Assembly (NCBI GenBank): GCA_003599295.1
Contig: QZJK01000006.1
Span: 14,681 to 78,680, forward strand
Source of the DNA: Candidatus Parcubacteria bacterium
GTDB lineage: Bacteria > Patescibacteriota > Minisyncoccia > Phycocordibacterales > UBA2100
Direction of reading: 5' to 3'
Length of the DNA stretch: 64,000 bases
The translations under genes were made by a program, and so were the position numbers. The notes under the pieces are model-generated. The model had not been told where the DNA came from and did no database searches. It was given only the letters and a program-made list of their open reading frames with translations. The stretch's first letter is position 1. The number at the start of each line of letters is the position of its first letter. Shown one piece after another: positions 1 to 17,035 of the stretch.

Positions 1-52
1 AGTACGCACGATTCGGGTTCGTGTAGACCGGGTTCGATTCCCGGCGGCCCGA
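1..52 (+). tRNA. tRNA-Pro(CGG), 5' end outside window
   Basis: T-arm ccggg/ttcgatt/cccgg. Anticodon stem cacga/tcgtg with loop ttCGGgt. 3' acceptor cggcccg then discriminator A, which implies a C1:G72 pair typical of bacterial tRNA-Pro. Confidence 0.55.
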
Positions 53-55
53 TAA

Positions 56-126
56 CGGGATGTCGTATAGTGGTAGTACGCAAGCATGGGGTGCTTGTAG
101 CCCGAGTTCGATTCTCGGCATCCCGA
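56..126 (+). tRNA. tRNA-Pro(GGG)
   Basis: Acceptor cgggatg/catcccg (C1:G72). U8, D-loop with GG, anticodon stem caagc/gcttg with loop atGGGgt (G37). T-arm ccgag/ttcgatt/ctcgg. Folded by hand. Confidence 0.6.
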
Positions 127-298
127 ACGAACGAAGTGAGAGAGGGATGAGCGAAGCCGCGCTTCGCGTCCGAGTCGCATGTCCCCGTGGAGGAAGGAAT
201 GGGAAACCGAAAGGTGTCCCAGACGGGGGTCGGGGGCATGGGCTCGGTGTCCCGAACGTAGACGCATGTTTTTTGCTAGTGTATTCTGTGCGTGCTTA

Positions 299-369
299 GG
301 GCTTATAGTAAAGTGGCATTACGCGGCATTCGCATTGCCGAGTCCCGGGTTCGATTCCCGGTAAGTCCA
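299..369 (+). tRNA. tRNA-Ala(CGC)
   Basis: Acceptor gggctta/taagtcc gives a G3:U70 wobble, the Ala identity element. D-stem gtaa/ttac. Anticodon stem cggca/tgccg with loop ttCGCat. T-arm ccggg/ttcgatt/cccgg. Confidence 0.65.
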
Positions 370-415
370 CAAACAGCATTCCATTCGCGCCTTTTTCTGC
401 TATACTGCTTTCCTA

Positions 416-1372
416 ATGGACTACCGCGTCTTCAGCCTTGGCTCGAATGACGGTCTCGCGACGAAGATCGCAGAAACGCTGGGAATGCCGCTGGGCCAAG
501 TGAAGTGCAGAGCGTTCTCCGACGGCGAACAGCACGTGCAGTTCCTCGAAAATCTTCGCGGCAAGAATATCTTTCTCATTCAGTCGACGAATCCTCCGGC
601 GGAGAATTGGATACGGCTTCTTCTTGCGATAGATGCGGCACGTGGCGCTTCTGCCCGCGAAATAACCGCAGTCATACCATACTTCGGCTACTCACGGCAG
701 GATAGGAAAGCTCGACCGCGCGAACCGATTTCCGCGCGGATGTTCGCGGAGGCCCTCGAATCCGTCGGCGCGAACCGCATTCTTACGATGGACCTTCACA
801 ATGACGCCATCGGCGGTTTTTTCCGCGAGGCGAACGTAGACTATCTGTACGCGCGGCCGGTATTTCTCAACTATTTCCGCGATTATTTCAAAGAAGCGCT
901 CAAAAAAGATGACCTAGTCGTCGTATCACCGGATGCCGGAGGCACTGTTCGCGCCCAATCCTATGCGCGGCGTCTTATGAAATCCGCAGACCTCGCCATC
1001 ATCCACAAGGAGCGAGAGATACCCAACAAAGTCGCGCGCATGAAGCTCGCCGGAGACGTGAAAGGAAAAATTGCACTCATCGTGGACGATATGGCGGACA
1101 CCTGCGGCACCTTGGCGCGCGCAGTTGAACTGCTCGTCGAAAACGGCGCAACGGAAGTTTACGCGGCCGCGACGCACGGCATTCTTTCGGGAGACGCGAT
1201 ACAAACGTTGGAGTCTTCCGCCATTAAACGCGTCTTTATCACTGACACAGTGTCCACCGACCGCGAACTTGGTTCGAAAGTGGAAGTCGTATCAGTGGGA
1301 AAGACCTTCGGAGAAGCAATAGACCGTATCGAAAGCGGCGAATCTTTAAGCGCATTGTTTGAAACGGAGTAG
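416..1372 (+). CDS. prs: ribose-phosphate pyrophosphokinase
   Basis: 318-aa ORF with a typical Prs N-terminus (MDYRVFSLGSN...IAETLG...FSDGE) and a PRPP-binding region (IALIVDDMADTCGT). Confidence 0.9.
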   Translation: MDYRVFSLGSNDGLATKIAETLGMPLGQVKCRAFSDGEQHVQFLENLRGKNIFLIQSTNPPAENWIRLLLAIDAARGASAREITAVIPYFGYSRQDRKARPREPISARMFAEALESVGANRILTMDLHNDAIGGFFREANVDYLYARPVFLNYFRDYFKEALKKDDLVVVSPDAGGTVRAQSYARRLMKSADLAIIHKEREIPNKVARMKLAGDVKGKIALIVDDMADTCGTLARAVELLVENGATEVYAAATHGILSGDAIQTLESSAIKRVFITDTVSTDRELGSKVEVVSVGKTFGEAIDRIESGESLSALFETE

Positions 1373-1593
1373 GAACACTCGGGGTATTGTCCCCACAGAA
1401 CCCGGATGCGCTTTCCCGCGAAGCGCATCCTTAGGTTCGACGCTCGGCTCGCGCTTCGCGCGAGGCCAAGCCCTCGCGTCTGCACAGGTTCCGCACGGAC
1501 AATACCCCTCGCTTGGAGTTGGAAGGGGAACGTCCCAGATGCTTTAATTGCGCGTCTGAGAAAAACGCGTAATTATGAGCGCGTGCGATACAC

Positions 1594-1665
1594 GCTCCCA
1601 TAGTTTAATGGATAGAACGTAAGCTTCCGGAGCTTATGATCGAGGTTCGATTCCTCGTGGGAGCA
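1594..1665 (+). tRNA. tRNA-Arg(CCG)
   Basis: Acceptor gctccca/tgggagc. D-arm tagtttaatggatagaac. Anticodon stem taagc/gctta with loop ttCCGga. T-arm gaggttcgattcctc. Confidence 0.65.
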
Positions 1666-1725
1666 CACGAATACAGTGAGTACCGTAAGCAAGTCCTCGT
1701 TTTGAACGTCTGTTATACTATACAT

Positions 1726-2190
1726 ATGACGAAAACATGGCTTCTCTTGGGTTTAGCGCTCCTTCTCGCGATAGTCGCGGGGTTTCTTTTGTCTCTGCCT
1801 TCACAAACTCCAAGTGGCGAGGTTTCCGCCATTTCTACATTTGAGGAATGTGCCGCGGCAGGCTACCCAATCATGGAATCGTATCCGGAGCAATGCATGA
1901 CGCCTGATGGCCGCACGTTCACTCGAGACATTTCAGGGGTGGGCGGTGGAGAGGACATAACATTCAACGGTTGCGCGGTCGCGGGTTGCAGCGGACAACT
2001 CTGTGTTTCGGCGGAAGAGGCTGAAGGCATTTTCACGACGTGCGAATTTCGACCGGAATATGCATGCTATAGAGAAGCTTCATGCGAGCCGCAAGCTAAC
2101 GGAAAATGCGGTTGGACGGAAACAGCTGAGCTCCGGCAATGCCTCGCGAATCCTCCAGCACTTGATGATAGTGAACCGCAGGTTTACTGA
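1726..2190 (+). CDS. cysteine-rich secreted/membrane-anchored hypothetical protein
   Basis: The ORF-track start at 1636 overlaps tRNA-Arg. The internal Met (MTKTWLLLGLALLLAIVAGF) gives a signal/anchor helix, followed by 8 Cys in about 120 aa. Confidence 0.45.
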   Translation: MTKTWLLLGLALLLAIVAGFLLSLPSQTPSGEVSAISTFEECAAAGYPIMESYPEQCMTPDGRTFTRDISGVGGGEDITFNGCAVAGCSGQLCVSAEEAEGIFTTCEFRPEYACYREASCEPQANGKCGWTETAELRQCLANPPALDDSEPQVY

Positions 2191-2340
2191 CGACGTAGAG
2201 CGAGTGAAATGCAAATGTACTCATTTGCATTTCCGAGCCGAGGAGACAGAAACTGGCGTAAACGTGATTGCGCTTTTGCGCAGGGAGTGCATTCCGACCC
2301 GCAGGGTCAACGCCCTGTGGTGTCGGAATGAGCCAGTTTA

Positions 2341-4014
2341 CTAAAGTCGGCACATTTTGTTAGGATGGGTCGCGCAGGGCCCATAGTATAGCGGTAGAAC
2401 GGTTCCATGGCATGGAACAGGTCGGGGTTCGACTCCCCGTGGGTCCACATCGTAGGAGTTGGTAGTTACCAACTCATTAAATAACCTTGTACTGCTTAGC
2501 GAATGAGCGGTTCGATAACCCTCATTTTGGAAATAGGGCAATTTTCCATCAAACAGGAAGAAAAAGAGCCGCTGCTTTTCGTAAGCAGTGACACTTTTCC
2601 ATATACTTACAGGGTTATTGAGAAGCCCCGTCGCCTTTTCGAGAGCGGTTCGATAAGGTACGCCAGGGTCATCATTTGCACCCATTCTGGCCTCGATACT
2701 GTCGACCTCTTTGGCCGTAGTCTCCATCTCTTTCTCGTACTCTCTCCTCACAGTGTCTGAGGACGTCTTCCGTGCCAGCTCAGCGAGCTGCTTAATCTTC
2801 TTTTTGAGATCGTCCGCACGCTCTTGCATAAGTGTCTTATTCCATTCGACATTGCGTAGCTCTTGTGCCCAAACACGATCAAATACAGTCGCAACAACCT
2901 GCCCAACATCTTGCTTGAGAGCCGTACCTGCGAGAAGTAGTATGAAATTATCCTCAACCTCCTGCTTGTGAAGCATTTTGCTATAGCGTGCACAGACTTT
3001 GTTCTGGCAGTAGTAATATCCATATCTCGCGCTGCGCCCTTTAGACCACGCCCCCGTTAACGGTTTGCCACAATCGCTGCAAACGACCAGCGACCTCATC
3101 GGGAAGTCCTCCGACGTTGTTCTACGAACTTTTCCCCGAATACTATCCTTGTTCAGCCGCTTTAGTATCTGCGCGTGCATTTCGGGCGAGATGATACCTT
3201 GATGCTTGCCTTTGCCGCGAGGTACCTTCCACGGTTTATATTCGATGTCACCGCAGAAGAAACAATCTTCGAGTAACTCGCGTGTTTGTGTGATGCATTT
3301 ATCCGGAGAGCGACCCTTCCAGAATCCGCGCTCTACGAGGAAACGGGCGACATCAATTTGCCGCGCAAGATTGCCGGTAGCAAAGCCTTCGAGTGCTTCT
3401 TTGACCACTCCGAGCCCTTCTTTGTTTGGCACTGAGAATTTCCCATGCAGAGGGTTCTTCACCATGTCGTATCCACGTTTCTTTTTGAAGGGCCAATAGC
3501 CCAGCTCGAGACGAGCTTTCATTTTTTGAATCACTTGGCGTCGGTTCTGGAGTCGTTCGAGCTTTGCCTGTGCTGCAAATATGGTCTCGGCGAACTCTCC
3601 TTCGGGTGAGTCATCGAAGCTGTAGTTGAGACAGTGCAGTAAAACATCTCTCGCCTTGAACGCTGCTCGGAGTTTGAAGTGGAACTCTGTATCGCGAGCG
3701 AACCGTTTGAGATCATCGAAAATCACCAAGAATTTTTGATGCGGGTTTGCGTCTATGTAGTCCAGCATCTCTTTCATTGCAGGGCGTCGCATGAAATCGC
3801 CGCCTCCGGTGAAGCTGTCCGGAAAGGTTGCCTCGTAAGGCACACGCAGTCGATGCTCTAGCTCGTCTTTGCATCGTCCCTCCTGGCTCTGGAGTCCTGT
3901 GCCTTCGGATTCCTGTCGCTTGCTTGATACCCGGACATACACGAGACCGATTCTTCCTTCGTATGGCGAAGTAGTACTGGGGACGACTGTTTCATTTTCT
4001 GTTTTATTCACCAT
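2341..4014 (-). CDS. large serine recombinase (resolvase/invertase N-domain, recombinase domain, zinc ribbon, coiled coil)
   Basis: N-domain GLVYVRVSSKRQ with catalytic Ser. Zn-ribbon CSDCGKPL...YYYCQNKVC. Coiled-coil E/K-rich segment. The start was chosen at MVNKTEN; Met codons up to 4128 are possible. The in-frame C-terminal tail (about 35 aa) is encoded antisense across tRNA-Ala(GGC). Confidence 0.8.
   Translation of the reverse strand: MVNKTENETVVPSTTSPYEGRIGLVYVRVSSKRQESEGTGLQSQEGRCKDELEHRLRVPYEATFPDSFTGGGDFMRRPAMKEMLDYIDANPHQKFLVIFDDLKRFARDTEFHFKLRAAFKARDVLLHCLNYSFDDSPEGEFAETIFAAQAKLERLQNRRQVIQKMKARLELGYWPFKKKRGYDMVKNPLHGKFSVPNKEGLGVVKEALEGFATGNLARQIDVARFLVERGFWKGRSPDKCITQTRELLEDCFFCGDIEYKPWKVPRGKGKHQGIISPEMHAQILKRLNKDSIRGKVRRTTSEDFPMRSLVVCSDCGKPLTGAWSKGRSARYGYYYCQNKVCARYSKMLHKQEVEDNFILLLAGTALKQDVGQVVATVFDRVWAQELRNVEWNKTLMQERADDLKKKIKQLAELARKTSSDTVRREYEKEMETTAKEVDSIEARMGANDDPGVPYRTALEKATGLLNNPVSIWKSVTAYEKQRLFFFLFDGKLPYFQNEGYRTAHSLSSTRLFNELVTTNSYDVDPRGVEPRPVPCHGTVLPLYYGPCATHPNKMCRL
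2377..2447 (+). tRNA. tRNA-Ala(GGC)
   Basis: Acceptor gggccca/tgggtcc with G3:U70. Anticodon stem gttcc/ggaac with loop atGGCat. T-arm cgggg/ttcgact/ccccg. Confidence 0.65.
2458..2473. repeat. perfect palindrome gttggta-GT-taccaac, 11 bp after the tRNA-Ala 3' end; candidate serine-recombinase crossover core
   Basis: Read directly from the sequence: 7-bp arms around a central dinucleotide. It lies inside the recombinase ORF tail. Confidence 0.3.
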
Positions 4015-4270
4015 ACGGTCGTAGTTCATCTCTAATAATACTCCTGCAAACGTTCTCGACATACCAAAGCCTTCTGGATATAAGGTCATCGGGTGTTGTC
4101 TCGTCGCACAGTAGACGGCGATACTCATGGACGGACATGACAGTATCGCCGCTTCCTACAGTGCTAATAACGAGACCGTATACGACTGCAATAATCGTTG
4201 CGTCCGACACCGACACTGTGTCGTGAACAAATACCGCGATAGTCCTATTTTCTTCTGTCTTTGTGTTCAT
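4004..4270 (-). CDS. small hypothetical protein upstream of the recombinase (possible directionality factor or leader)
   Basis: 88-aa ORF filling the gap between the 4289..4816 gene and the recombinase start. No recognisable motif. Confidence 0.2.
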   Translation of the reverse strand: MNTKTEENRTIAVFVHDTVSVSDATIIAVVYGLVISTVGSGDTVMSVHEYRRLLCDETTPDDLISRRLWYVENVCRSIIRDELRPYGE

Positions 4271-4288
4271 ACGGTCTCCGTGTCGTGT

Positions 4289-4816
4289 TTAGGTTTTGAC
4301 TCCGCCCCCTTGGTCGTTTTGACCCCGATTCTGGTACGCCTCGAGGGGTTTCGTGTGGACATACAGTTGCGCCAGGATCGACCTTTTCTCTTCCTGCGCA
4401 TAGTCGTCTTTATCGACCAGTTTTTTGAACCATCGCCGAATCAGATCGGGGTGGAAGTTCTGCCCAAGAATCGTGAGGGCGAAGTTTAAATAAGTGCTGT
4501 GGTTAGGGCGCTCACGTTCGAGCGCTGCAAACCGGCGTTCAATGCTTCTCATACGAGTTGTTTTATGACCGAGTAATGTCGCACGATTTGGTATTTCATA
4601 TTCATTTGCGCCATTACTTCCCGAGAACGACAAAAGGAGCACGCGCCTTCCGACGTGCTCCTCCGCATTCCCGCCCAACAAAAAACCCGAAAGCGACCGG
4701 CGAATGTCGATTCCGTATGGTGTACGAAGAGAATCGCCAACCGCTTTCGAGCGGCTTGTTCGGATTACCGACACATGATCCTCGTACACCATGTATCCAT
4801 CCTCTCTAAGTACCAA
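4289..4816 (-). CDS. hypothetical protein (element cargo)
   Basis: 175-aa ORF co-oriented with the recombinase. No recognisable domain. Confidence 0.4.
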   Translation of the reverse strand: MVLREDGYMVYEDHVSVIRTSRSKAVGDSLRTPYGIDIRRSLSGFLLGGNAEEHVGRRVLLLSFSGSNGANEYEIPNRATLLGHKTTRMRSIERRFAALERERPNHSTYLNFALTILGQNFHPDLIRRWFKKLVDKDDYAQEEKRSILAQLYVHTKPLEAYQNRGQNDQGGGVKT

Positions 4817-5022
4817 ACCCTAAATCGGCATTGCTTTGTGGATAACTCTCGCCGCTACTATCCCACAATAGGCCGCCTCCCGATGCTGTAAAAAATGCCC
4901 GGGTCTGAACGTATACGGTATCTTATGATTCCTTTTTGAGGCCGGAGTCCCACCCAAACCACCCCCACCCCAATGTCTCAGTAGGACTGGATGTGTGCAT
5001 TACCAGATAACGATGCACACCT

Positions 5023-5247
5023 ATGTACATTCAAGTACTACACCGCGAAGTGTGGTGCGACGTGGAGGGCAACTACGTGCCCACAGATGAGATTGTCGCG
5101 TACCGGGCGTTTAGTGAGGATGGTTTGATATTCGGTTACGGAGAGACCAAGGAGGAGGCAGAGGCCTGTCTGCAGCGTATTTTGTGGCGTATCGAACACC
5201 CCCTTGGTCCAAAATACCCTTGTCCTGCAAAGCCCTTGACACCTTGA
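5023..5247 (+). CDS. small HicB-like/UPF0150-like protein (weak)
   Basis: 74 aa. The pattern ...FSEDGLIFGYGETKEEAEACLQRIL resembles the HicB antitoxin fold signature. No HicA partner was identified. Confidence 0.3.
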   Translation: MYIQVLHREVWCDVEGNYVPTDEIVAYRAFSEDGLIFGYGETKEEAEACLQRILWRIEHPLGPKYPCPAKPLTP

Positions 5248-5315
5248 CTTTCTTATTGTTTGGGTGTACAATAAACACCGAGGAAGTCCTTTCACAGCAA
5301 TGGGAGAACGAGACT

Positions 5316-5813
5316 ATGGCCATTTCCACTTTGGCATTCATTGACTTCACCACCGCGGTGAAGCCCACCATCCACGATTTCTATCGATGGCAAGCGAAGG
5401 GTTTCGACGGCTTCGTCGGAACTTCAAGCCAATGCAGTCTGGAACTTCACAAGCCTGGCGGCAAATACTGGTGCACGTTGCACAATGGCATGTGGCACTA
5501 CGAAGGGGCAGCAGGTCGGCTCTTCGCTGCCGCACCTGTTGTGCCGATTTTCGCTGAGCTTGGTGAAGCGCAGGTGCACATGGTTCGGGGCGCTTTCGGC
5601 AAGTTCGTCGGCGGCAACGCTGTCACGGACTATCTCGCCAAGGAGACCGAGGCCGTCACCCGTATCCTCGAGATGGTGAGCAAATTCGAGGAGTTGTCCG
5701 GCGTAGCGTACTTGGAGGACGAGCGCGAGCGTCTGGCGCAAAAGCTGCTCCACGAACTGGCCCACAAGCCGGAGCACGAGCACTATCTCGACAAGCTCGC
5801 CAAAGCCGCCTGA
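5316..5813 (+). CDS. hypothetical protein in a high-GC patch
   Basis: Start MAISTLAF. Strongly GC-biased third codon positions, about 60% GC versus about 55% in flanking DNA. No known motif. Confidence 0.4.
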   Translation: MAISTLAFIDFTTAVKPTIHDFYRWQAKGFDGFVGTSSQCSLELHKPGGKYWCTLHNGMWHYEGAAGRLFAAAPVVPIFAELGEAQVHMVRGAFGKFVGGNAVTDYLAKETEAVTRILEMVSKFEELSGVAYLEDERERLAQKLLHELAHKPEHEHYLDKLAKAA

Positions 5814-5922
5814 GCGTCAGGCAAACCGAATTGGGAGGACGGTCATTTCCTCCCCTCTACTGAGATGACGACCCCAGCGTCGAAGTCTCTGCGAGATAGC
5901 ACATTCACATCAGCAAGGGAGA

Positions 5923-6462
5923 ATGCCAATGTTTGTCGACCACCCACCGGTGCCGAACTGTCCTGCACGTCAGGTCATCGTCATCGAGGAAAAGGACAAG
6001 CCTTATACCATCCTCTTCGTCGACCAAGTGGTCGAGAAGGCTCGAATGTTCGACGCCACCTCGCGTGACGCCGACAATGACGAGATCTTCTGGATCGTCT
6101 ACGGCAACGAGCCTCGGCGCGTCTGGGACATGACCGAATCGGCGTTGCGCAGCTCGCTGCGTCGCCCGAAGTCGGAGCGTTTGCCGAAGGAGCAGTTGCT
6201 CGCAATGGGCGACGATGCACCGCTCGGCGAAATCCTGGAATCATTCGAGTACGGCAGCAACCTGGACAACTTCGCTCGGCGCGAAATGCCGAGGGTCTGT
6301 CGTGAGCTCGAGGTCAACACGCTTGGCCAACTCCGGCAGCATAAACGCGCCGAGATCAGGGGGCCGCAGTGCTGCAGGGCTGGCCAAAGGACCCTGTCGT
6401 ACCTCGACGCCGTCCTGCGCGAGTTCGGCAAGCCCGATCTGCGCTACTACGAAAACGCCTGA
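5923..6462 (+). CDS. hypothetical protein with a C-terminal helix-hairpin-helix-like segment
   Basis: 179 aa. C-terminus ...LEVNTLGQL...AGQRTLSYLDAVLREFG resembles an RNAP alpha-CTD/HhH pattern. High GC. Confidence 0.35.
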   Translation: MPMFVDHPPVPNCPARQVIVIEEKDKPYTILFVDQVVEKARMFDATSRDADNDEIFWIVYGNEPRRVWDMTESALRSSLRRPKSERLPKEQLLAMGDDAPLGEILESFEYGSNLDNFARREMPRVCRELEVNTLGQLRQHKRAEIRGPQCCRAGQRTLSYLDAVLREFGKPDLRYYENA

Positions 6463-6612
6463 CGCCGAAGGAGGAACCAATGGCGCTCATTCGTGCCCCG
6501 CCCACTTCGAGACCACCCCTGAAAAGGTGGTCTCTTTTTTATTTACATACGCCTCTTTGGTCATGGAGCGCTTGCTTTCCAAGGCTCTAAAAAAGGAGTA
6601 GTCTGGCCTCAA

Positions 6613-7749
6613 ATGGACTATCGCGAAATCCGGGAATACCAAATAAAACAACTGGCAAAGAATGTCGCCGAGACACCGTGGCTTATCCTGCCCGGAGAGA
6701 ATAAGCTTACCCGCCGTGCTGTGAAGCTTAGTTTTATTAAAAGCCATACCGACCCCGATAAATTCGTAGGCGTCCATGCGGAGGTTCTATTTCAGAAGCG
6801 TAAAAACCAGAGGGAGCCGTGGCCCGCTCGGTTCGTAAATCTCACAAAGGTTCCCTCAGACTTCGGATTTAGGTTCGCTTTAGACTCAGCACAGACATAC
6901 GAACTCGCACAGGCGTTACAAGATGCTTACCCCATAGGTAGCGAAAAATTATCCTCCGGCAAGCGCACGGTGTTGCGCGGTATTGGCAAGGACGAGCTGG
7001 TGATCACGGATAAGAATAAGGTGGAGGCTCTCCAGCAACTCTCGAAGGTTCTTACAGAGGAAGACATAAATAAATGGATCAAGGAGAACTTGCACGCGCT
7101 CTCTGCAGATCTCGCACTTGCCCGTCTTTATCATGAGCGCAAGGCGAAAGTGGAGGAGTTTAGGAAAGCGCTCGAGCGAGATGAGGACGAAAACTTTTGG
7201 CAAAGGTTCCTCAAAGAGAACGACTGGATGTTTGGCACCGCGTGCGTGGAGATACTGAGCGAACGACGGCTCGGCATCCATCACACCACAGATTTTCCTC
7301 TCAAGACCCATGGCGGGTTTATGGATATTGTTGAAATAAAGCGTCCCGGGCTTTCTTTCTGGACTATGGCCAAGAGTGGAGGTCACTACAAGTACCGCAA
7401 CAAGTTCCTAATACCGCATCCCGAACTACAAGGTGCTCTTGCCCAAACCACGAAATATATTTTGCAGGCAGAGAAAAAGGTAAACGATAAGGAGTACATT
7501 GACGATCATGACGGTGTAATTCCACTCAAACCACGAGGCATTGTAGTGCACGGTAGAAGTAATAAATGGGGCGAGGAGGAATGGGAGGCTTTCCGCTTGC
7601 TTAATGACGAGATGCATACGGTTCAGATTCTGACCTTCGACCACCTACTCGCACAAGCCGACCGTATGCTCGCAGTAATGCAGGTGAAAGACGAGAATCC
7701 TCCACTAGAGGAGGTGGAGGATATTAACCCCGATGATATTCCGTTTTAA
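6613..7749 (+). CDS. Shedu-like (DUF4263) PD-(D/E)xK nuclease, putative anti-phage defence protein
   Basis: C-terminal half carries FWQRFLKENDWMFG, then TDFPLKTHGGFMDIVEIKRP (D...E.K catalytic motif), then VQILTFDHLL. These match the DUF4263 signature pattern recalled from Shedu SduA. Confidence 0.5.
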   Translation: MDYREIREYQIKQLAKNVAETPWLILPGENKLTRRAVKLSFIKSHTDPDKFVGVHAEVLFQKRKNQREPWPARFVNLTKVPSDFGFRFALDSAQTYELAQALQDAYPIGSEKLSSGKRTVLRGIGKDELVITDKNKVEALQQLSKVLTEEDINKWIKENLHALSADLALARLYHERKAKVEEFRKALERDEDENFWQRFLKENDWMFGTACVEILSERRLGIHHTTDFPLKTHGGFMDIVEIKRPGLSFWTMAKSGGHYKYRNKFLIPHPELQGALAQTTKYILQAEKKVNDKEYIDDHDGVIPLKPRGIVVHGRSNKWGEEEWEAFRLLNDEMHTVQILTFDHLLAQADRMLAVMQVKDENPPLEEVEDINPDDIPF

Positions 7750-8013
7750 TGCCCGTCCGAAGAATCGGATCAAAATCCCTGAAAACAGAGAATTTGCCAC
7801 CCCCAGGTCTTGTACTCCCCATATCTAATACCTGCTATGTGGTAATACCTTGTGGCGTTCATGGCTCCGCTGCAAGCAATTCCTGCAAATGAGGGGAAGC
7901 CTGGTAATGACCCCAGAACCGAGAAAGATAGGTTTTAGTGCGGTTCAATATTTGATACGCTGAGTCCACAGAACTACATCAAGTGCGACATGGCGTATGG
8001 TACCCTATAACGA

Positions 8014-8352
8014 ATGAAGGGAGAGGGAATGCATCATCTGCATCTGCGGAAACGCGTCTACAAAAAACTGGAGCCGTATCCGCATCCTGTAGCGTGGAAG
8101 CGCTATCTCGACTATTTAATGTATGTGGTTGCTATCGTTGCTCCTATCGCCCTTGTGCCCCAAGTCTGGAGCGTGTATGCGACAAAGAACGTTTCCGGTC
8201 TCGTTGTCGCGCCATGGATACTGCTCGGCGCCATGCACATACTATGGGCATTCTACGGAACGATACATCGCGAATTGCCGCTCGTGGTGACTTCAGTTCT
8301 CTTTGCCTGCATGAACTTCAGCCTCCTTATCGGCATTTTGCTCTTCAGATAA
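8014..8352 (+). CDS. PQ-loop (SemiSWEET-like) small membrane protein
   Basis: 112 aa with 3 predicted TM helices. PQ motif in TM1 (LVPQVWSVYATKNVSGL). Confidence 0.4.
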   Translation: MKGEGMHHLHLRKRVYKKLEPYPHPVAWKRYLDYLMYVVAIVAPIALVPQVWSVYATKNVSGLVVAPWILLGAMHILWAFYGTIHRELPLVVTSVLFACMNFSLLIGILLFR

Positions 8353-8391
8353 GCACACTTTGACTGGGTACGAGAATGCTAGAATAACGAT

Positions 8392-9255
8392 ATGAAGGCG
8401 GCGTTCTATGTAGTACTCGTCCTTTTTCTTCTCCTCGGCGGTTTTTTCGCGCTAAATACTTATATATACGAGGAAAAGCAGGAGGAGGAAAATACCTTCG
8501 CGACATACCTCTGTTCGGACGGAAAGTCTCTCACGGCGCGGTTCGAAGAGGGCAATACAATCGTTTTCTTGGGCGATGATAGGGTATTGACGCTTGCGAA
8601 AATTGCGGCCGAATCCGGGGCTCGGTATGAAGATGCTACCGGCCAGGCTGTTCTCTCAACGACCGATACCAATGCGTCATTTGAAGAAGGCGGAACTGTC
8701 ACCTACGCCGACTGCGTATACGCTTCGGAGCGAGAAAGTTTCGAGCGGGGCGATGAGCTGTGGACGCGATACACGAACGAAAACATCGGTTTCTCGTTCG
8801 AGTATCGCGAAAGGCCGCAGGGGTATTTCTTGCAAGAGCCCCGTGGCACGGATGAGCATCCCGATTTCGTGAAAGCACTTGTTCTCACGAACAAGCAAGA
8901 GTACGAAGAACTCTTGCAGAGCACGAATGGACGCGAGGGTCCGCCTACTATCACAACCCTTATCTTCAATAATCCGGAGCGGCTTTCGCCAAGCGCGTGG
9001 GCCGACGCCAACCCGGGGTTAAGCAATATCGGGCTCATTCGCGGCGAAGTCGTTGAAACATCGGTAGCCGGCGCGCCGGCGATCCGCTACGCGGCCGACG
9101 GACTGTATCTCTCCGATAACGTCATCATCGCGAACGGCTCATACATCTACGCCATAACCGGCTTTTACCTCGAAGAAGACTCACGCATCCGTGAAGACTT
9201 CGAGCCGTTCTTACATTCTATTACGTTCATGGTGAAAGGAGAGCAAGAGCTTTGA
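8392..9255 (+). CDS. membrane-anchored protein with N-terminal MliC-like (lysozyme-inhibitor) domain
   Basis: N-terminal TM helix. C...SLTARFEEGNTIVFLGDDRVLTLAKIAAESGARYED...TYADC matches the MliC fold pattern. C-terminal domain unknown. Confidence 0.4.
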   Translation: MKAAFYVVLVLFLLLGGFFALNTYIYEEKQEEENTFATYLCSDGKSLTARFEEGNTIVFLGDDRVLTLAKIAAESGARYEDATGQAVLSTTDTNASFEEGGTVTYADCVYASERESFERGDELWTRYTNENIGFSFEYRERPQGYFLQEPRGTDEHPDFVKALVLTNKQEYEELLQSTNGREGPPTITTLIFNNPERLSPSAWADANPGLSNIGLIRGEVVETSVAGAPAIRYAADGLYLSDNVIIANGSYIYAITGFYLEEDSRIREDFEPFLHSITFMVKGEQEL

Positions 9256-9833
9256 GTACGCAGGAAACTAATGACATGAAAAGGGCGAAGCGGAACGGTT
9301 TTCTTCAGGACATCGGCATCATCGCATTAAGCGTCGTTGTATCCGTTCTTCTCGCGAAAACGGACGTCATCGTGAATCTTCTCGCGTCATCGGAGAAACT
9401 CGAGTATCTCGGGACGTTCGTTGCAGGGATGTTCTTTACTTCGATATTCACGACGGCCCCTGCTATCGCGACGCTCGGTGAACTTTCTCTTCTCCATGGG
9501 ATACTTCCGACGGCACTCGTCGGAGCCCTCGGCTCTGTTGCGGGAGACCTCCTCATCTTCCGCTTCATACGCGACCGATTCTCCGACCACATAACCGAGC
9601 TCTTGGGGCATAAGAAAGTGCTTCGCCGATTCCACACTCTTTTTAAGCGGCGAGTATTTTATTGGTTTACGTTCCTGTTAGGGGGCATAGTACTTGCATC
9701 GCCGCTTCCCGATGAACTCGGCATCAGTCTTTTAGGGCTCTCGAAGACTAAGATGATGTACTTTATAGCGATGTCTTATGTATTTAACGTGCTCGGCATA
9801 TTCGCCATCGGAATTATCGCCGCAAATCTCTAG
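9252..9833 (+). CDS. hypothetical integral membrane protein
   Basis: 193 aa with multiple hydrophobic helices. Translationally coupled to the upstream gene. Confidence 0.45.
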   Translation: MSTQETNDMKRAKRNGFLQDIGIIALSVVVSVLLAKTDVIVNLLASSEKLEYLGTFVAGMFFTSIFTTAPAIATLGELSLLHGILPTALVGALGSVAGDLLIFRFIRDRFSDHITELLGHKKVLRRFHTLFKRRVFYWFTFLLGGIVLASPLPDELGISLLGLSKTKMMYFIAMSYVFNVLGIFAIGIIAANL

Positions 9834-9842
9834 CGTGTAGTA

Positions 9843-11444
9843 TCATCCCCATTCGATCGTCGCGGGCGGTTTGTCAGAAATTCGATAGGTGACAGCACCG
9901 ACCTCGCGCACCTCGTTCGTTATGCGGCGCGAGACTTTTTCGAGGAAATCATAGGGGAGGGTCGCAAAGCGGGCCGTAAAGCCATTAACGCTCCACACGG
10001 CCCATAGTGCAACGACATGTCCGAGTCCCGCATCGTCTCCTTTTGAGACGGTGTGTTCGGAGTGGGTGACCACGGCGCCTGCCTGCCAGACCGTCCTATA
10101 GAGATCGGCGGCGCGCAGTTCCTCGATGTAGATGCCATCCACGGCGCGTGCGGTTTTCAGTTTTTCAGCGGTCACCTCGCCTTCAATGCGAACGACAAGG
10201 CCAGGCCCGGGGAACGGATGGCGCAGGAGCAGGTCTTCAGGAACGCCGATGTCGGCGCCGATGCCGCGGGCGGAATCCTTCACCTGATCTTCAAGGGGCG
10301 TGAGTTCCGGCACGGAAAAGTCTATGCCGGTATTGTGGTGCACTTTTATTTCCGCGATGCGCGCGCCTGTCGCATGGCCCATGCCGCTTTCGCGGAGGTC
10401 GGTATAGAGCGTGCCCTGCACGATGAAATCCGCTCCGAATTCTCGGATCTTTTCCTCCAGTACGTCTTTGTAGACGCCGCGCATCGCGAGCCGCTTTTCC
10501 CGCATGGATGTTTTCCCGCGAAGCGAATCCAAAAAGAGCGCCGTCGCGTCGGCAATTTCCACCTCTATCCAGTCTTGCCCGCCGAAATACTTTTGCACGT
10601 ACGCCTCGTCGTCCGGACGGTCTATCCCGCGGATGTACACGCCTTTGATACCGCCTTTCACGCCTTCATGCGCTTTTTTGAGAAGATAGGCAACCACGGA
10701 TGAATCGGAACCGCCAGAAAGCGCGATGAGCACTTTTTTGCCGGCTATCTGCTTTTGTAACTCGGCAATTTTTTGTTCCGCGACGCTGTGGGCAGGGAAG
10801 CGGTCGGTTATGCCGCAGATCTTTACGCAGAAGTTTTCGTACATTTTCGCACCCTCTGCCGTGTCTGTGACTTCCGGATGGAACTGCACGCCCCATAGGT
10901 GCTTGTACCGCGCCGCGGCGATGGGCGTGTTGTCCGTCGAACCGAGTTCAATCATACCCTTGATGCTTCCCACAATGTCGCCGTGCGTTTCAAGAACAGG
11001 AGTTTTTTTGGAGACTCCTTCAAAGAAGGGGTCTTCGGCGGATATGTTCAAGGTATGTACGCCGAACTCGCGCTTTTCGGCGGTAGAAACGGGCGCACCG
11101 ATATGTTTCGCCCACATCTGGAAACCGAGGCACACGCCGAGGACCGGAATGCCAAGGTCGAAGATAGCGCCGTCAAAAGGTGGCGGCTCGTCAAAAACCG
11201 ACGCGGGACCGCCGGAAACGATAATGCCTGCCGGAGCGGCTTTTTTGACATCATCAGCGCTCACCGTCGAAGGATCCGCGACGACCGCATATACACCGAT
11301 CTTCGCGAGCCGCTGGACGATAAGGTGGTCGAACTGGCTCCCCATTGAAAAGAGGAGGATGAAGTGGGCGGTCTTCCGCACGCGCATTTCTTCCGCTATG
11401 TGTTCGAGTGCTTCCGGTGTTGCCTTTGTGAAGATACTAGGCAT
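9843..11444 (-). CDS. guaA: GMP synthase (glutamine-hydrolysing)
   Basis: GATase domain (GVCLGFQM with catalytic Cys) and the ATP-PPase SGGSDS P-loop. Full length 533 aa. Confidence 0.9.
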   Translation of the reverse strand: MPSIFTKATPEALEHIAEEMRVRKTAHFILLFSMGSQFDHLIVQRLAKIGVYAVVADPSTVSADDVKKAAPAGIIVSGGPASVFDEPPPFDGAIFDLGIPVLGVCLGFQMWAKHIGAPVSTAEKREFGVHTLNISAEDPFFEGVSKKTPVLETHGDIVGSIKGMIELGSTDNTPIAAARYKHLWGVQFHPEVTDTAEGAKMYENFCVKICGITDRFPAHSVAEQKIAELQKQIAGKKVLIALSGGSDSSVVAYLLKKAHEGVKGGIKGVYIRGIDRPDDEAYVQKYFGGQDWIEVEIADATALFLDSLRGKTSMREKRLAMRGVYKDVLEEKIREFGADFIVQGTLYTDLRESGMGHATGARIAEIKVHHNTGIDFSVPELTPLEDQVKDSARGIGADIGVPEDLLLRHPFPGPGLVVRIEGEVTAEKLKTARAVDGIYIEELRAADLYRTVWQAGAVVTHSEHTVSKGDDAGLGHVVALWAVWSVNGFTARFATLPYDFLEKVSRRITNEVREVGAVTYRISDKPPATIEWG

Positions 11445-11515
11445 GTCGGGGTGATTTTAGCACAAAATTCTGCCGATTTCCCGCACTTCATCGAGAACTC
11501 ATATTTTGCACAATC

Positions 11516-11581
11516 GTGTGGATAACTGGGTTGCAGTCGTGTATAGTGGTATATACTCTATTGCAGTGGGATAGAGTGGTA
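11516..11581 (+). promoter_or_regulatory. mraZ upstream region with GTGG(G/T) direct repeats (putative MraZ boxes) and promoter
   Basis: GTGG at 11518, 11547, 11566 and 11577, the last two 11 bp apart. A ttgcag...tatact-like promoter is embedded. By analogy with E. coli MraZ operator repeats. Confidence 0.3.
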
Positions 11582-11584
11582 AAT

Positions 11585-12028
11585 ATGGAACACCTGTTGA
11601 TCGGCGAGTACGAGCACACGCTGGACGAAAAGAAACGAATATCCTTGCCCAAAGCCTTTCGAACGGCGCTCGGGAAAAGGGTCATCGTGACGAGGGGCCT
11701 CGATAACTGCCTCTTCGTATTTTCTCGTGATTCGTGGGGAAAGATCGCGGAGAAATTACAATCTCTCTCGTTCGCGAACGTGGATACGCGCGGGTTCAAC
11801 AGATTCATGCTTTCCGGAGCGGCTGAAGTGGATATAGACGACGTCGGCCGCATTCTTATACCGGATCATCAGAAAGCGTTCGCAGGTCTGAAGAAACGGG
11901 TCGTCTTTACCGGCGTATCCGACCGGGTCGAGATATGGGACGCCGAAACGTGGTATCGCTACAAAGCCCGCATCGACAAGGATGCAGAACGGCTGGCGAA
12001 AAAGCTTGGAGAGATAGGAGCACTCTAA
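11585..12028 (+). CDS. mraZ: transcriptional regulator MraZ
   Basis: MEHLLIGEYEHTLDEKKRISLPKAFR... with duplicated SpoVT/AbrB-like halves. First gene of the dcw cluster. Confidence 0.85.
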   Translation: MEHLLIGEYEHTLDEKKRISLPKAFRTALGKRVIVTRGLDNCLFVFSRDSWGKIAEKLQSLSFANVDTRGFNRFMLSGAAEVDIDDVGRILIPDHQKAFAGLKKRVVFTGVSDRVEIWDAETWYRYKARIDKDAERLAKKLGEIGAL

Positions 12029-12071
12029 ACACCTGGTGGCACGGGGTAGCTGGAAGAATTGCATACACGTC

Positions 12072-13022
12072 ATGCGCACGCGACGCTCACAATCTTCCAG
12101 CGACCCGGTGTCGTCAAAGCCGCTTTCCGGCGGAGGACACCGAAGCGTTCTTTTACACGAAGCTGTCGAGAGTCTTTCGATAGCGCCGAACGACATAGTA
12201 GTGGATGCGACATTGGGAGGCGGAGGCCATGCCAAACGCATTGCGGAGAAATTAGGGAAAGAGGGGATATTCATCGGATTCGACCTGGACGGGTCCGCGA
12301 TAGAACGGTCGCGGGAAGCACTTGCGGGAACGCTTCCGAGAACGCACTTTTTCCAAGACAATTTTCGAAATCTTTCCGCAAAACTGCAGGAGGCAGGCAT
12401 ACCGCACATAACGAAAGCCCTTTTCGACCTTGGGTGGAGTTCTTACCAACTCGACTCCGGAAGAGGATTTTCGTTCCTAAAGGATGAGCCCCTTCTCATG
12501 ACGTATGCGACGGAGATAATCTCTCAAACGCTCACGGCGGAGAAAATCGTGAACGAGTGGGAAGAAGGGAATGTCGCCGACGTGTTGTGGGGCTGGGGAG
12601 AGGAGCGCTACTCGAGAAGGATCGCGCGCGCGATAGCCGAAGCGAGAGCGCGAAAGCCTATCAAGACCTCGCGGGAACTTGCGGAAATAATCGCAAACGC
12701 CGTACCGCGCGCATATCGTCATGGGCGGATACACCCGGCAACGCGCACGTTCCAGGCGCTTCGGATAGCGGTCAATGACGAATTGGGCGCGCTCGCGGAA
12801 GGTCTGCGGGGTGCGTGGGAGAAGCTTTCTCCCGGCGGGAAGCTCGCGGTCATTACGTTCCACAGCATCGAGGACCGCATCGTCAAACAGACATTTGCCG
12901 CGTGGGAGAAGGAAGGGGTCGGACTTCGCATGACGAAAAAACCGATGTCCCCAAGCCCGGAAGAGATACGAGAAAATCCCCGCTCGCGCAGTGCAAAACT
13001 TCGTGTCATCGAAAAAGTTTGA
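12072..13022 (+). CDS. rsmH: 16S rRNA (cytosine1402-N4)-methyltransferase
   Basis: HRSVLLHEAVESL...VDATLGGGGHAKRI SAM motif. The start was chosen at the internal Met; the ORF extends to 12036. Confidence 0.85.
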   Translation: MRTRRSQSSSDPVSSKPLSGGGHRSVLLHEAVESLSIAPNDIVVDATLGGGGHAKRIAEKLGKEGIFIGFDLDGSAIERSREALAGTLPRTHFFQDNFRNLSAKLQEAGIPHITKALFDLGWSSYQLDSGRGFSFLKDEPLLMTYATEIISQTLTAEKIVNEWEEGNVADVLWGWGEERYSRRIARAIAEARARKPIKTSRELAEIIANAVPRAYRHGRIHPATRTFQALRIAVNDELGALAEGLRGAWEKLSPGGKLAVITFHSIEDRIVKQTFAAWEKEGVGLRMTKKPMSPSPEEIRENPRSRSAKLRVIEKV

Positions 13023-13047
13023 AATTTGAAAATCAAAAATTCTCACC

Positions 13048-13449
13048 ATGGGTACGCGTATACATAAAATAAGCAGATACAAACCCTCGATATTCCAGGG
13101 TTCTTTGCGCCTTTCTACGGAACGCGGCGGCTTTTCGCTCACCGTCGAGCATCCGGCGGAGCGCGTCCTTTTTAAGACGCTTATCGCGGCACTGGCATTG
13201 CTGACGGTCGGATATGTCTATTTCGTAAGCGCCTCCGTCCTGAACGTTATCGCGAGGAAAGACGCGGTCCGTGAGACAGCATCACTCGAAAGTAAAGTCT
13301 CGCTTCTCGAACGCGATTATTATGCCGCAACAGCCGCTCTCACTCCTTCATCCGGAGAGCGCCTCGGGCTTTCGCCGGTGTCGAACACGCGCTATGTGCA
13401 CCGCCCCGGAGTCGTGGGCGTCGCGGAGACACCGTTAAATGAGATCTAA
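13048..13449 (+). CDS. FtsL-like cell-division membrane protein
   Basis: Single TM helix plus a coiled region. Sits at the ftsL position between rsmH and ftsI. Confidence 0.4.
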   Translation: MGTRIHKISRYKPSIFQGSLRLSTERGGFSLTVEHPAERVLFKTLIAALALLTVGYVYFVSASVLNVIARKDAVRETASLESKVSLLERDYYAATAALTPSSGERLGLSPVSNTRYVHRPGVVGVAETPLNEI

Positions 13450-15154
13450 GTTCGTACTGCGTGCGCGGCTCCTTTCCGGAGTCTTGATACTCATTGCCAT
13501 ATTTTTGGGCGCGCGCCTCTACTTTGTTCAGATAGTGAACGGCGAAGAATATCGCGAGAGCGCCAAGGGTCAGTACGTGGTCGAAACCGACCAAAGCATC
13601 ATCGATCGCGGCAATATCTTCTTCACGAAAAAGGACGGCACGCAGGATGGTGCGGCGGTCATGCAATCGGGATGGCGGGTCGCCATTTCTCCCAAGGACA
13701 TAAAAGATGCAAATGAGGTCTTTGCGGCAATAGCTGCGGAGACCGAACTGGACAGCGAGCGCTTCTTCGCGAGCACGGCGAAGGAAGAAGACCCCTATGA
13801 AGAGGTTGCGTTCCGTATTTCCGACGAAGCGGCCACCGCCATTCGCGCAAAGAAATTGCCCGGTGTGATACTCGTGAGAGATCAGTGGCGCTACTATCCG
13901 GCAGGGGAACTTGCCGCGCACGCGCTCGGTTTCGTCGGTTTCCAAGGCGACAAACGCGTCGGCGTCTACGGGCTCGAGCGGTTCTGGGAGGCGACGCTTT
14001 CGCGCACATCATCAGGACTCTATGTGAATCCGTTCGCGGAGATCTTTATGAATCTTGAAGAAGCTCTGACAGCTGATCCTGTCTCGCGAGAGGGAAGCAT
14101 TATTACGACCATAGAACCATCCGTCGAAACTCGCCTCGAAGAAACGCTGGAAGACGTGATGGAAACTTACTCGCCGAAATTGGTCGGCGGCATCATCATG
14201 GATCCGAAGACGGGTGCGATACGGGCGCTTGGGTTGCGTCCCGCATTCGATCCTAACACCTACAACACCATAGAGAATCCGGCGGTCTTCACGAATCTTC
14301 TCGTCGAAGGCAGGTACGAAATGGGATCCATTATGAAGCCTTTGACCATTGCGGCCGCGATAGATGCGGGTGCCGTGACGCCCGAAACTACATACATGGA
14401 CAGGGGATGCATTGAGAAAAGCGGGAAGACCATTTGCAACTACGACAAAAAAGCGCGCAACAGGGTCTCGATGCAGGAAGTATTGAATCAGTCGCTGAAC
14501 CTCGGCGTTTCGTACGCAGTCGACCAAATGGGGCATGAAGTGTTCGGGCAATACATTCACGCGTACGGTCTTGGCGACAAGACGGGCATCGAACTCCCAA
14601 ATGAGGCGGCGGGGAATATCCGCGCGATAGATAACGGGTACGACGTTGATTACGCCTCTGCGGGATTTGGACAAGGCATTGCTGTTTCGGCTGTCGGCAT
14701 GACGCGCGCGCTCGCAACGCTTGCGAACGAAGGCGTGCTCCCGAATCCGCATATCGTATCGGGTATTCGCATGAAAAGCGGCATTAGCCGCTCGGTCGAA
14801 CCGGAGGCCGGCACGCAGGTGTTAAAGCCGGAGACCGCGCAGACAGTTTCGACGATGCTCGTGAAAGTGTTCGATGACGCGCTTCTCGGTGGCATTCTGA
14901 AGCAGGAACACTATTCGATTGCGGCGAAAACCGGAACCGCGCAGGTCGCCGTTCCGAACGGAAGCGGCTACTATCCCGATCGCTACCTTCACTCGTTCTT
15001 CGGGTATTTTCCGGCGCACGACCCGCAGTTCATCGTCTTTCTGTTCGCCATCGAGCCGAAGGGAGTTGAATTCGCTTCCGCATCGCTCGCGCGGCCATTC
15101 CTCGAAGTCGCGAAGTATTTGATAAATTATTACGATATCCCACCAGACAGATGA
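13439..15154 (+). CDS. ftsI: penicillin-binding protein 2/3 transpeptidase
   Basis: N-terminal anchor and PBP dimerisation domain. Transpeptidase motifs SIMKP (SxxK), SxN and KTGTA. Confidence 0.85.
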   Translation: MRSKFVLRARLLSGVLILIAIFLGARLYFVQIVNGEEYRESAKGQYVVETDQSIIDRGNIFFTKKDGTQDGAAVMQSGWRVAISPKDIKDANEVFAAIAAETELDSERFFASTAKEEDPYEEVAFRISDEAATAIRAKKLPGVILVRDQWRYYPAGELAAHALGFVGFQGDKRVGVYGLERFWEATLSRTSSGLYVNPFAEIFMNLEEALTADPVSREGSIITTIEPSVETRLEETLEDVMETYSPKLVGGIIMDPKTGAIRALGLRPAFDPNTYNTIENPAVFTNLLVEGRYEMGSIMKPLTIAAAIDAGAVTPETTYMDRGCIEKSGKTICNYDKKARNRVSMQEVLNQSLNLGVSYAVDQMGHEVFGQYIHAYGLGDKTGIELPNEAAGNIRAIDNGYDVDYASAGFGQGIAVSAVGMTRALATLANEGVLPNPHIVSGIRMKSGISRSVEPEAGTQVLKPETAQTVSTMLVKVFDDALLGGILKQEHYSIAAKTGTAQVAVPNGSGYYPDRYLHSFFGYFPAHDPQFIVFLFAIEPKGVEFASASLARPFLEVAKYLINYYDIPPDR

Positions 15155-15764: not shown

Positions 15765-15779
15765 TACTTTTGTACACGC

Positions 15780-17016: not shown

Positions 17017-17035
17017 GTTGAGATATACTCTCTGC

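Follow-up and report, generated by a model that had tools for sequence, protein, structure and literature searches.

Why does the gene of a large serine recombinase (LSR) run, in antisense orientation, through an intact tRNA gene? By the usual view, serine integrases stay clear of tRNA genes and have attachment (att) sites that lie outside their own genes, yet the integrase gene (int) described here belongs to a family that departs from this picture on both counts, across hundreds of species of the Candidate Phyla Radiation (CPR). It is found in a 64,000-nucleotide stretch of contig QZJK01000006.1 from a Candidatus Parcubacteria bacterium, the whole of which we refer to as the window. Positions 2449-7969 of the window evidently represent a 5,521-bp integrative element that entered at the 3' end of a tRNA-Ala(GGC) gene by LSR-mediated site-specific recombination. 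Its attP site appears to lie within int, such that integration splits the gene, an interpretation to which we assign, as a whole, a probability of about 0.85. The element carries the LSR gene, a conserved partner open reading frame (ORF) of ~45 aa, two genes without known function and a Shedu gene, and it evidently belongs to an extensive family that occurs chiefly in Patescibacteria/CPR and has relatives in the Rhodobacterales. A preliminary description, made from the window sequence alone, had already proposed an integrated element at this tRNA, which is borne out by the bases shared between the two ends, the site at the far end and the comparison of homologous loci; its right edge, then placed at 7760, has to be moved to 7969.

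The assignment of the integrase as an LSR, likewise made earlier, is upheld by domain, family and fold comparisons. The protein contains an N-terminal Resolvase domain (PF00239, 1.3e-16, residues 63-208) with the motif YVRVSSKRQ, in which R66, V67, S68 and Q72 are invariant in 22 sequences (the R-x-S-x-x-Q nucleophile motif), and a Zn_ribbon_recom domain (PF13408, 6.8e-6) with the invariant residues C350, C353, C374 and C379, while the recombinase domain PF07508 is precomputed for many of its homologues. It also matches a PHROG integrase family (1e-54) and shows weak NCBIfam similarity to CcrB, CcrC and XisF (50-66 bits, compared with cut-offs of 375-900). An AlphaFold2 (AF2) model of the homologue P0088 (mean pLDDT 86.9) adopts a full-length LSR fold with long antiparallel helices at residues 368-447, for which Foldseek returned full-length matches to 9dxh (described only as a serine integrase LSR complex), Bxb1 and phiC31 (E 1e-11 to 2e-16), with LI also among the matches. 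An assignment as an SSV-type tyrosine integrase was rejected, given that the protein has no Phage_integrase domain and is a serine recombinase. Translation likely starts at ATG 4026 (M35) rather than at 4128, because the N-termini of homologues align at ~M35-M40 and because a start at M35 makes int overlap the small ORF upstream by 23 nt, just as in locus L084. The window integrase was not present in a collection of 15 billion proteins under any of five start codons tested, and it was apparently left uncalled by annotators or marked as a pseudogene.

In the integrated state, residues up to Val561 (numbering of the maximal ORF) are encoded by the element, and the 34 residues that follow (2344-2445) are derived from the host. 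Codons 562-595 and the stop codon at 2341-2343 are antisense to the tRNA and to a further 33 nt past its 5' end, in line with the earlier estimate of about 35 codons. This overlap is a trait of the family. Homologues at 50-70% identity number more than 2000, most of them from Patescibacteria. In addition, 570 genomic loci were confirmed (one genome per species), and we retrieved the 80 best homologous loci, none of them from Dehalococcoidia, to compare their junctions. In the alignment, the C-termini run …TRLFEEFxxxNSxDV and then continue into peptides translated from antisense tRNAs. All 44 alignable loci have the junction …GAT GTG GA…, in which GTG corresponds to the Val561 codon of the window. 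The partner on the opposite strand is a transfer-messenger RNA (tmRNA) in at least 34 loci (25 identified by ARAGORN and nine more by Rfam), tRNA-Ala (tgc/ggc/cgc) in 18, plus three at an offset, and tRNA-Leu(cag) in three. The register of the overlap is identical in 41 of the 46 loci with a called t(m)RNA, so the overlap is, as judged from this comparison, not a matter of chance read-through. The end of these RNAs that carries alanine identity, U70-C71-C72-A73-C74, is complementary to GTGGA.

The far end of the element was recognised only after tandem arrays in homologous loci had been compared. The arrays of L036 (17-nt repeat), L010 (22-nt repeat) and L008, whose repeats begin at (T)GTGGA, yielded the pattern GTGGAC-N14-AT(C/T)GAACCGCCTAAAAACCTATCTTTCT (also given as GTGGAC-N14-AT(C/T)GAACCGCC…), which occurs 3.4-11 kb upstream of the junction in 22 loci. 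On both strands of the 64-kb window, it has a single match (0.035 expected), at 7969 in the intergenic gap after the Shedu gene. The conserved P arm and crossover found there fall into the interval 7750-8010, for which a search for a partner half-site had been suggested. The two ends of the element share only GTCCACA (2443-2449 and 7964-7970), and repeat searches of the window for a fragment of the tRNA 3' end or an inverted copy of the P' arm returned nothing beyond this 7-nt match. The absence of a long direct repeat, noted previously, thus follows from attL and attR having only few bases in common. The block shared in the window, GTCCAC(A), shrinks to GTGGA or GTGG in tmRNA and tRNA-Leu loci, placing the crossover within the GTGG(A) that is common to the family, i.e. 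at tRNA nucleotides 70-74. Most likely, strands are exchanged at A73 (2447) and C74 (2448), with the equivalent position at 7968-7969, and thus at the GT of the invariant Val codon; GT is favoured because P and P' are symmetric only around this dinucleotide and because it fits the identity limits. The junction comparison bears out the suggestion that the crossover lies inside the 3' end of int. With strands exchanged at its last bases, the tRNA gene keeps an intact body and the element has no need to carry a tRNA fragment: the insertion left the tRNA body untouched and displaced only the 3' trailer and the terminator to attR, where the host flank (B') resumes at 7970.

Read across the crossover, codons 7966..7859 at the far end are in frame with int and, joined to Val561, give a protein of 562 aa (counted from 4026). 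The predicted attP junction reads …CTACGAT-GT-GGACTCAGCG… (in its longer form …CCAACTCCTACGAT GT GGACTCAGCGTATCAAATATTGAACCG…) and the predicted empty attB junction …GGGTCC-AC-AGAACTAC… (longer form …CCCCGTGGGTCC AC AGAACTACATCAAGTGCG…). With the logos anchored on GT as the centre, attP seems to be quasi-symmetric, with the end of the int coding sequence as P' and a T-arm-like sequence as P. The P' arm carries an outer CAAAC-like motif at positions 21-25 from the crossover, and the P arm resembles a T-arm with a 5-nt insertion, so that its outer C(G/A)AAC motif is displaced outward by 5 bp relative to the tRNA. In an offset scan, the similarity of P to B peaked at +5 bp (0.42, versus at most 0.23 elsewhere), and that of P to P' was best at 0 to +1. 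In LI integrase, the motif bound by the zinc-ribbon domain (ZD) is positioned 5 bp closer to the centre in attB (PMC3783163). The half-site geometry derived here thus appears to conform to the LSR rule, by which attP has its outer motif 5 bp more distal than attB. The attB site, in turn, appears to comprise only one sequence-specific half-site, made up of the acceptor and T-arm DNA of alanine tRNA or tmRNA, with the 3' acceptor/T-arm part of the window tRNA (~2422-2446) as the B half-site of the former attB, according to the B-arm logo. As natural truncations (L010, L005) demonstrate, 22-27 nt from the tRNA 3' end are enough to serve as a partner. With an unspecific B', attL (P'-GT-B) would stay a good target, which would lead to tandem stacking and enable an older int to regain a tail from a newcomer. 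If attB does require a single specific half-site (a 22-nt stretch of tRNA acceptor and T-arm), this would explain the repeated stacking of elements at one tRNA.

Evidence for mobility comes from the guaA-tRNA backbone, in which the tRNA-Ala(GGC) gene is syntenic also in relatives without the element. Metagenomic relatives of the host (whose nearest named relatives are Kaiserbacteria) with guaA genes 71-88% identical to that of the window (protein RJQ35054.1) keep the order guaA-x-tRNA-Ala(ggc)-(orf184)-tRNA-Arg-prs, where x is ~20 nt, corresponding to an empty site, in L097, L104, L105, L108 and L137, and 1.4-7 kb of unrelated DNA in others; L106 has the far end of another family member 480 nt after guaA. 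Comparison with relatives, proposed earlier as a check, has thus uncovered empty sites at the genus level. The closest relatives, L086 and L087, share the three genes between guaA and attR of the window, and their contigs end just before the site. Tandem arrays exist in L008, L029 and L036. It is conceivable that the element is nevertheless a fixed, immobile remnant, with int effectively a 3'-truncated pseudogene and the region a stable defence islet: neither an excised circle nor a same-species empty site was found, the integrase is missing from public protein collections under any start codon tested, and decayed arrays of orphan tails occur elsewhere (L029). However, the window element has kept intact copies of int, of the small partner ORF, of the stranded tail and of the two att arms, with every family-invariant residue preserved, the architecture recurs in hundreds of species at 50-70% identity, implying recent horizontal spread, and the site is polymorphic among relatives. 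We therefore regard immobility as unlikely and presume that the element is currently active.

Further observations concern the history of such sites. L029 contains three orphan far ends or tails without integrases within 2.6 kb (at 1410, 3005 and 3966), and L008 has triplicated P-type arms (at 2233, 3161 and 11581); these arrays point to a t(m)RNA that was entered several times, after which the int-proximal parts decayed. The contigs with a joined gene that were examined for circularity (L081-L085) have no terminal overlaps and look like tandem or attP-like contexts inside larger islands. The three genes at 7970-9843 of the window (SWEET/PQ-loop-like, 112 aa; MliC/PsbP-like, 287 aa; and an ORF of 193 aa) are absent from more distant relatives, where guaA abuts the tRNA, and could be left over from an earlier insertion there.

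The sequence stranded at the far end appears to be a genuine part of the integrase. Among 24 far ends, frame 0 is open for 32-47 codons in every case, with the other two frames mostly closed within 2-10 codons, and the encoded peptide has the consensus VDxxxKT(L/S)NRLKTYLSRFWxYYQSSPxLQxALENA, followed by a stop. Conserved residues use alternating synonymous codons (Ser AGC/AGT/TCN, Leu CTN/TTR, Arg CGN/AGG and all four codons for Pro), which points to selection at the protein level on ~105 nt of the tail; pairwise divergence at codon positions 1, 2 and 3 amounts to 0.35, 0.38 and 0.52, respectively. Naturally joined genes are those of P0019 (558 aa), P0088 (557 aa) and L018; the int2 remnant of L036, which lies directly against the next element, is also of this form. 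The P0088 model shows a low-confidence linker exactly at the crossover and a tail of two C-terminal helices, whereas the host-encoded tail of the integrated window form is disordered in its AF2 model (pLDDT 34-53). A profile search for joined forms with core plus tail returned only orphan tails, which are annotated elsewhere as hypothetical proteins of 33-244 aa (77 clusters).

The overlap could also be incidental, if the functional integrase ended at ~Val561, neither the read-through into the tRNA nor the far-end tail had a role in the protein, and the conservation of the far end reflected constraints on the P arm, a promoter or another regulatory element at the DNA level. The first 8-9 tail codons do overlap the conserved P-arm DNA motif (AAC in 24 and AAA in 21 of the 24 far ends), the P-type arms of some lineages (L008, L014) have early stops, and the C-termini of the related DsiB proteins diverge (McMurdie et al., 2011). 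On the other hand, conservation is still seen at over 100 bp from the crossover, well outside the range of an LSR half-site, and its ~105 nt are roughly four times the length of such a half-site; the invariably open frame ends at a tightly constrained stop position, six-fold-codon and other synonymous switches occur at conserved residues, and the tail is predicted to be helical. We thus consider a purely DNA-level explanation improbable. The proposal that the far-end segment is an independent gene for a peptide of 36-45 aa has still less to recommend it: GTG can serve as a start codon and gene callers do annotate orphan tails as hypothetical proteins, but upstream of the GTG lies non-conserved host flank without a conserved ribosome-binding site or promoter (B' logo), the ORFs predicted by gene callers have arbitrary starts further upstream, and the segment is fused in frame to int wherever P' and P adjoin, making this a very improbable alternative.

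The perfect palindrome noted earlier at 2458-2473, just past the tRNA 3' end, does exist, although it is longer than described, extending over 2456-2475 (GAGTTGGTA-GT-TACCAACTC); it can form a hairpin and is located within the P' arm. A P' hairpin of 8-10 bp recurs across the family, with 75% of cells paired, compared with at most 50% when the partners are slid. Some of the changes are compensatory: we found 22 double-change cells versus 11.8 expected, a number reached in none of 500 shuffles, and covariation of synonymous E/N codons in the P' arm (Fisher p = 0.011, uncorrected for phylogeny). While the crossover was correctly suspected inside the 3' end of int, its placement at the centre of the palindrome, which would turn the tRNA-proximal 17 nt into host DNA and draws on the perfect dyad symmetry about GT at 2465-2466, is refuted by the comparative junction data, because 2449-2482 is conserved as int coding sequence across unrelated hosts and different t(m)RNAs, GTGGAC rather than the palindrome is common to both ends of the element, and attR carries no palindrome half; the crossover lies in GTGG(A) instead.

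Returning to the split-gene model, the presence of attP within the int ORF would mean that integration divides the gene: the integrated copy (4026..2341) would read into the antisense tRNA and gain 34 junk residues, leaving the native helical C-terminus of 35 residues (7966..7859) behind at the far end of the element. Excision to a circle would rejoin the full-length gene of 562 aa, and so would a newly arriving element that inserts between the tRNA and int. The two states would thus produce different integrase isoforms and, in addition, int is convergent with a highly expressed tRNA or tmRNA gene when integrated. Together, isoforms and convergent transcription could provide the element with a built-in read-out of its own integration state, and full activity or competence for integration may possibly be attained only on the circle. 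It is tempting to speculate that the tail acts as a sensor of the integration state, with full-length and tRNA-tailed integrases differing in activity, directionality or stability, an idea that we regard as tentative and more probably wrong than right. If it were true, a serine integrase would partly control integration versus excision by rewriting its own C-terminus; we know of no such control among serine recombinases.

Several points weigh against the interpretation developed here, beyond the missing circle and same-species empty site. The exact predicted attB was absent from the metagenome collection in an exact-match scan, and no recombination directionality factor (RDF) was identified. 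A scan of IMG/VR found no relatives, suggesting that the elements are probably not phages. The far-end pattern was derived from the first examples, and only 22 loci were delimited. The dinucleotides GT, TG and GG are all compatible with the identity data, the choice among them not being fixed by sequence alone. Not every lineage has the tail: the int genes of L008 and L014 continue into P-type arms with a stop codon after 4-7 codons, so it cannot be essential throughout the family. Terminators after the tail stop codon are not enriched (one of 24, compared with 1.6 expected), the covariation and codon-position statistics ignore phylogeny, and the regulatory role of an isoform switch is purely inferential.

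The closest precedent is provided by the ssrA islands of Dehalococcoides, which carry DsiB, a CcrB-like LSR of ~540 aa encoded at the island edge (McMurdie et al., 2011; PMC3146451). The 3' end of its gene always overlaps attL, antisense to the tmRNA gene, and its discoverers considered that the gene might be complete solely in the circular form or beside another island, the overlap being noted but left unresolved (PMC3146451). These islands have a 20-bp direct repeat with the inferred crossover in the T-loop, C-termini reported as divergent, and a six-gene module including a second, small serine recombinase (DsiA) along with ParB, RecF-like and Mom-like genes (PMC3146451). Compared by description rather than by sequence orthology, both systems have an LSR gene at the island edge, with its 3' end over attL and an antisense t(m)RNA, and form tandem arrays downstream of ssrA. 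The family described here differs in its short shared block (4-7 bp, in the narrower estimate 4-5) and crossover at nucleotides 73/74, in having only the ~45-aa partner ORF in place of a six-gene module (none of the ORFs of the window element encodes a second Resolvase-domain protein, ParB, RecF-like or Mom-like protein), in its conserved tail that can be rejoined in frame, and in using tRNA-Ala and tRNA-Leu besides tmRNA as targets. The crossover position, module content, target range and conserved rejoinable tail are thus new relative to DsiB, and the model addresses a question pending since 2011, namely why the dsiB gene has no stop codon of its own.

The canonical phage integrases (A118/LI, Bxb1, phiC31, SPbeta) share with the present family the order of catalytic, recombinase and zinc ribbon plus coiled-coil domains, short sites with a non-palindromic central dinucleotide and the 5-bp shift of the outer motif between attP and attB. 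To our knowledge, however, their sites lie beside the integrase ORF and not inside it, and their targets are usually protein-coding genes; the apparently single sequence-specific half-site of attB is a further difference. In the TIGER survey, only 14 of 297 elements with serine integrases were at t(m)RNA genes, a rare and unproven class (PMC7192596). SCCmec (CcrAB/CcrC) and tycheposons resemble the elements described here as small, LSR-moved cargo islands at the 3' end of a conserved housekeeping gene that grow by tandem accretion. The target of SCC is rlmH rather than a tRNA, and a minority of the tycheposons rely on LSRs to enter tRNA-Ala(ggc) and tmRNA genes; we know of no description of a split integrase gene for either group. 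Archaeal tyrosine integrases of the SSV1 type do have attP within their gene, which is partitioned upon integration into a tRNA gene and restored by excision. In contrast to the present case, in which a C-terminal appendage of 35 aa is lost, these tyrosine recombinases of archaeal viruses and plasmids are split into two large fragments, and the gene is inactivated. In mycobacteriophage BPs and its relatives, attP is situated inside the repressor coding sequence, and integration alters the C-terminus of the repressor, removing a degradation tag (PMC4557955). There, too, the form of a protein is linked to the integration state through attP in a coding sequence, but it is the repressor that is altered, by a tyrosine integrase, whereas here the integrase itself is affected.

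For biochemical work, the comparisons make available the sequences of all four att sites (attP, attB, attL and attR), together with a probable central dinucleotide and two isoforms that occur naturally. If the tail did control directionality or stability, it would represent a new mode of regulation for an enzyme class with wide use in genome engineering. These integrases apparently escape public annotation, and the orphan tails are called hypothetical proteins; mobile defence islands of CPR bacteria are therefore under-counted.

The positions of all features, together with the half-site consensus sequences, are given in Table 1.

Table 1. Features of the window element and its att sites, consensus sequences of the half-sites, and RNA motifs in related elements.
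Feature	Position	Strand	Details
int, integrated state	2341..4026; maximal ORF to 4128	-	595 aa maximal, 561 aa from M35
tRNA-Ala(GGC), intact host gene	2377-2447/8	+	ARAGORN; Rfam 55.5 bits
Crossover dinucleotide at attL, probable	2447-2448		AC on the tRNA strand = GT of the int GTG (Val561) codon
P' arm of attL	2449-2482		Last element-encoded int codons (…LFNELVTTNSYD); logo
Small conserved ORF upstream of int	4004..4270	-	Overlaps the int start by 23 nt
Second small ORF of the int-proximal module	4289..4552	-	~87 aa; C-terminal part of the 175-aa ORF 4289..4816
High-GC cargo patch	5184..6462	+	ORFs 5184-5813 (209 aa) and 5923-6462 (179 aa)
Shedu (SduA, DUF4263) anti-phage defence gene	6613..7749	+	SduA_C PF14082, 6.1e-21; PADLOC SduA, 4.2e-52
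Stranded int 3' end	7859..7969	-	GTG + 35 codons + TGA (VDSAYQILNRTKTYLSRFWGHYQASPHLQELLAAEP, stop)
attR	7935-7969		P arm 7935-7967 (reverse complement GGACTCAGCGTATCAAATATTGAACCGCACTAAAA) + crossover AC 7968-7969
P arm consensus			GGACAtagcg.gTAAaAcATcGAACCGccTaAAA
P' arm consensus			ATc.t.gGagTTTg.agt.gCAAAcTCCTCAAAt
B arm consensus			GGAgatggcgGGAaTCGAACCcgcg
B' arm			Featureless, no conservation; often the displaced t(m)RNA terminator
LOOT RNA sites in related elements	L015 6620-6742; L023 8306-8427; L036 2042-2160, 7469-7589; L037 8692-8804; L043 3966-4085; L048 7282-7401		

The partner ORF upstream of int has a conserved core of ~45 aa (from M44, 4141..4004; SVxEYRxLLxDxxSxDxxIxxRLxYLExLCRxIIxxEL) with blastp matches in 48-49 loci, always 1.5 kb from the junction and translationally coupled to int. 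Searches of Pfam, PHROG, NCBIfam and PADLOC gave no match; the ORF is a candidate for an accessory factor, either an RDF or a regulator. Next to it, residues 89-163 of the 175-aa ORF are conserved in eight loci, with no family match.

The cargo had been described as a compositional mosaic with a Shedu-like gene, and both points are confirmed, by a measured GC content of 0.56-0.62 at 5250-6500 versus 0.48-0.51 for int and Shedu and by the Pfam and PADLOC matches of the Shedu protein (RJQ35050.1). The two high-GC ORFs match nothing in Pfam, PHROGs or PADLOC and do not recur in other elements; 3' of them lies a strong terminator-like hairpin (6509-6534), and a promoter and terminator scan of the element was uninformative. 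The Shedu cassette (6589-7749) is 89.5% identical at the nucleotide level to positions 3105-4265 of L166, a Logan contig with a distantly related LSR element whose int is antisense to tRNA-Tyr(gta) (…NESDNV, followed by RRGGFEPP and a stop). The remainder of the L166 element, whose far end was not identified, is unrelated to the window element. Defence cargo is thus evidently exchanged between elements, with Shedu as a swappable cassette, which would account for the compositional mosaic. The cargo of 17 delimited elements consists mostly of defence genes, comprising type I, II and IIG restriction-modification systems, AbiEii-like ATPases, SAVED proteins, PARIS (AriA) and Panacea toxin-antitoxin genes, to which MerR-type regulators are added. 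At least seven related LSR elements contain a LOOT RNA (Rfam RF03000, 70-94 bits), typically 2.8-4.0 kb upstream of the t(m)RNA junction, and no such RNA is present at positions 1-20000 of the window; this orphan motif may form part of such elements.

The tRNA-Ala and tRNA-Arg genes of the cluster (at 359-371, 1655-1667 and 2437-2449) end in …N-A-C-A, with no encoded CCA, and the C at position 74 of these genes is part of the conserved integrase target GTGGA. The same GTGGA junction is found in relatives from Rhodobacterales at ~39% identity (L073, L076 and L080, with junctions at ~11510, 11501 and 5941), at an apparent tRNA-Ala, as judged from the 3'-end sequence GTGGAGCC… and the anticodon-loop sequence; no far end was identified within 10 kb in these three loci. 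Their cultured carriers, Lutimaribacter degradans EGI FJ00013 and Rhodovulum bhavnagarense DSM 24766, are experimentally tractable hosts. More distant LSRs (22-28% identity) in relatives of the window host are antisense to tRNA genes as well, to tRNA-Ala(ggc) in L159 (2852-4489) and to tRNA-Glu(ctc) in L136 (705-1887), and the antisense-overlap architecture may thus reach well beyond the int family. In the window itself, the tRNA-Glu(ctc) gene (15780-15851), whose counterpart is the LSR target in L136, is bracketed by a perfect 17-nt inverted repeat pair (15334-15350 and 15885-15901), and a perfect 17-nt palindrome with a 4-nt spacer is located at 15149-15186.

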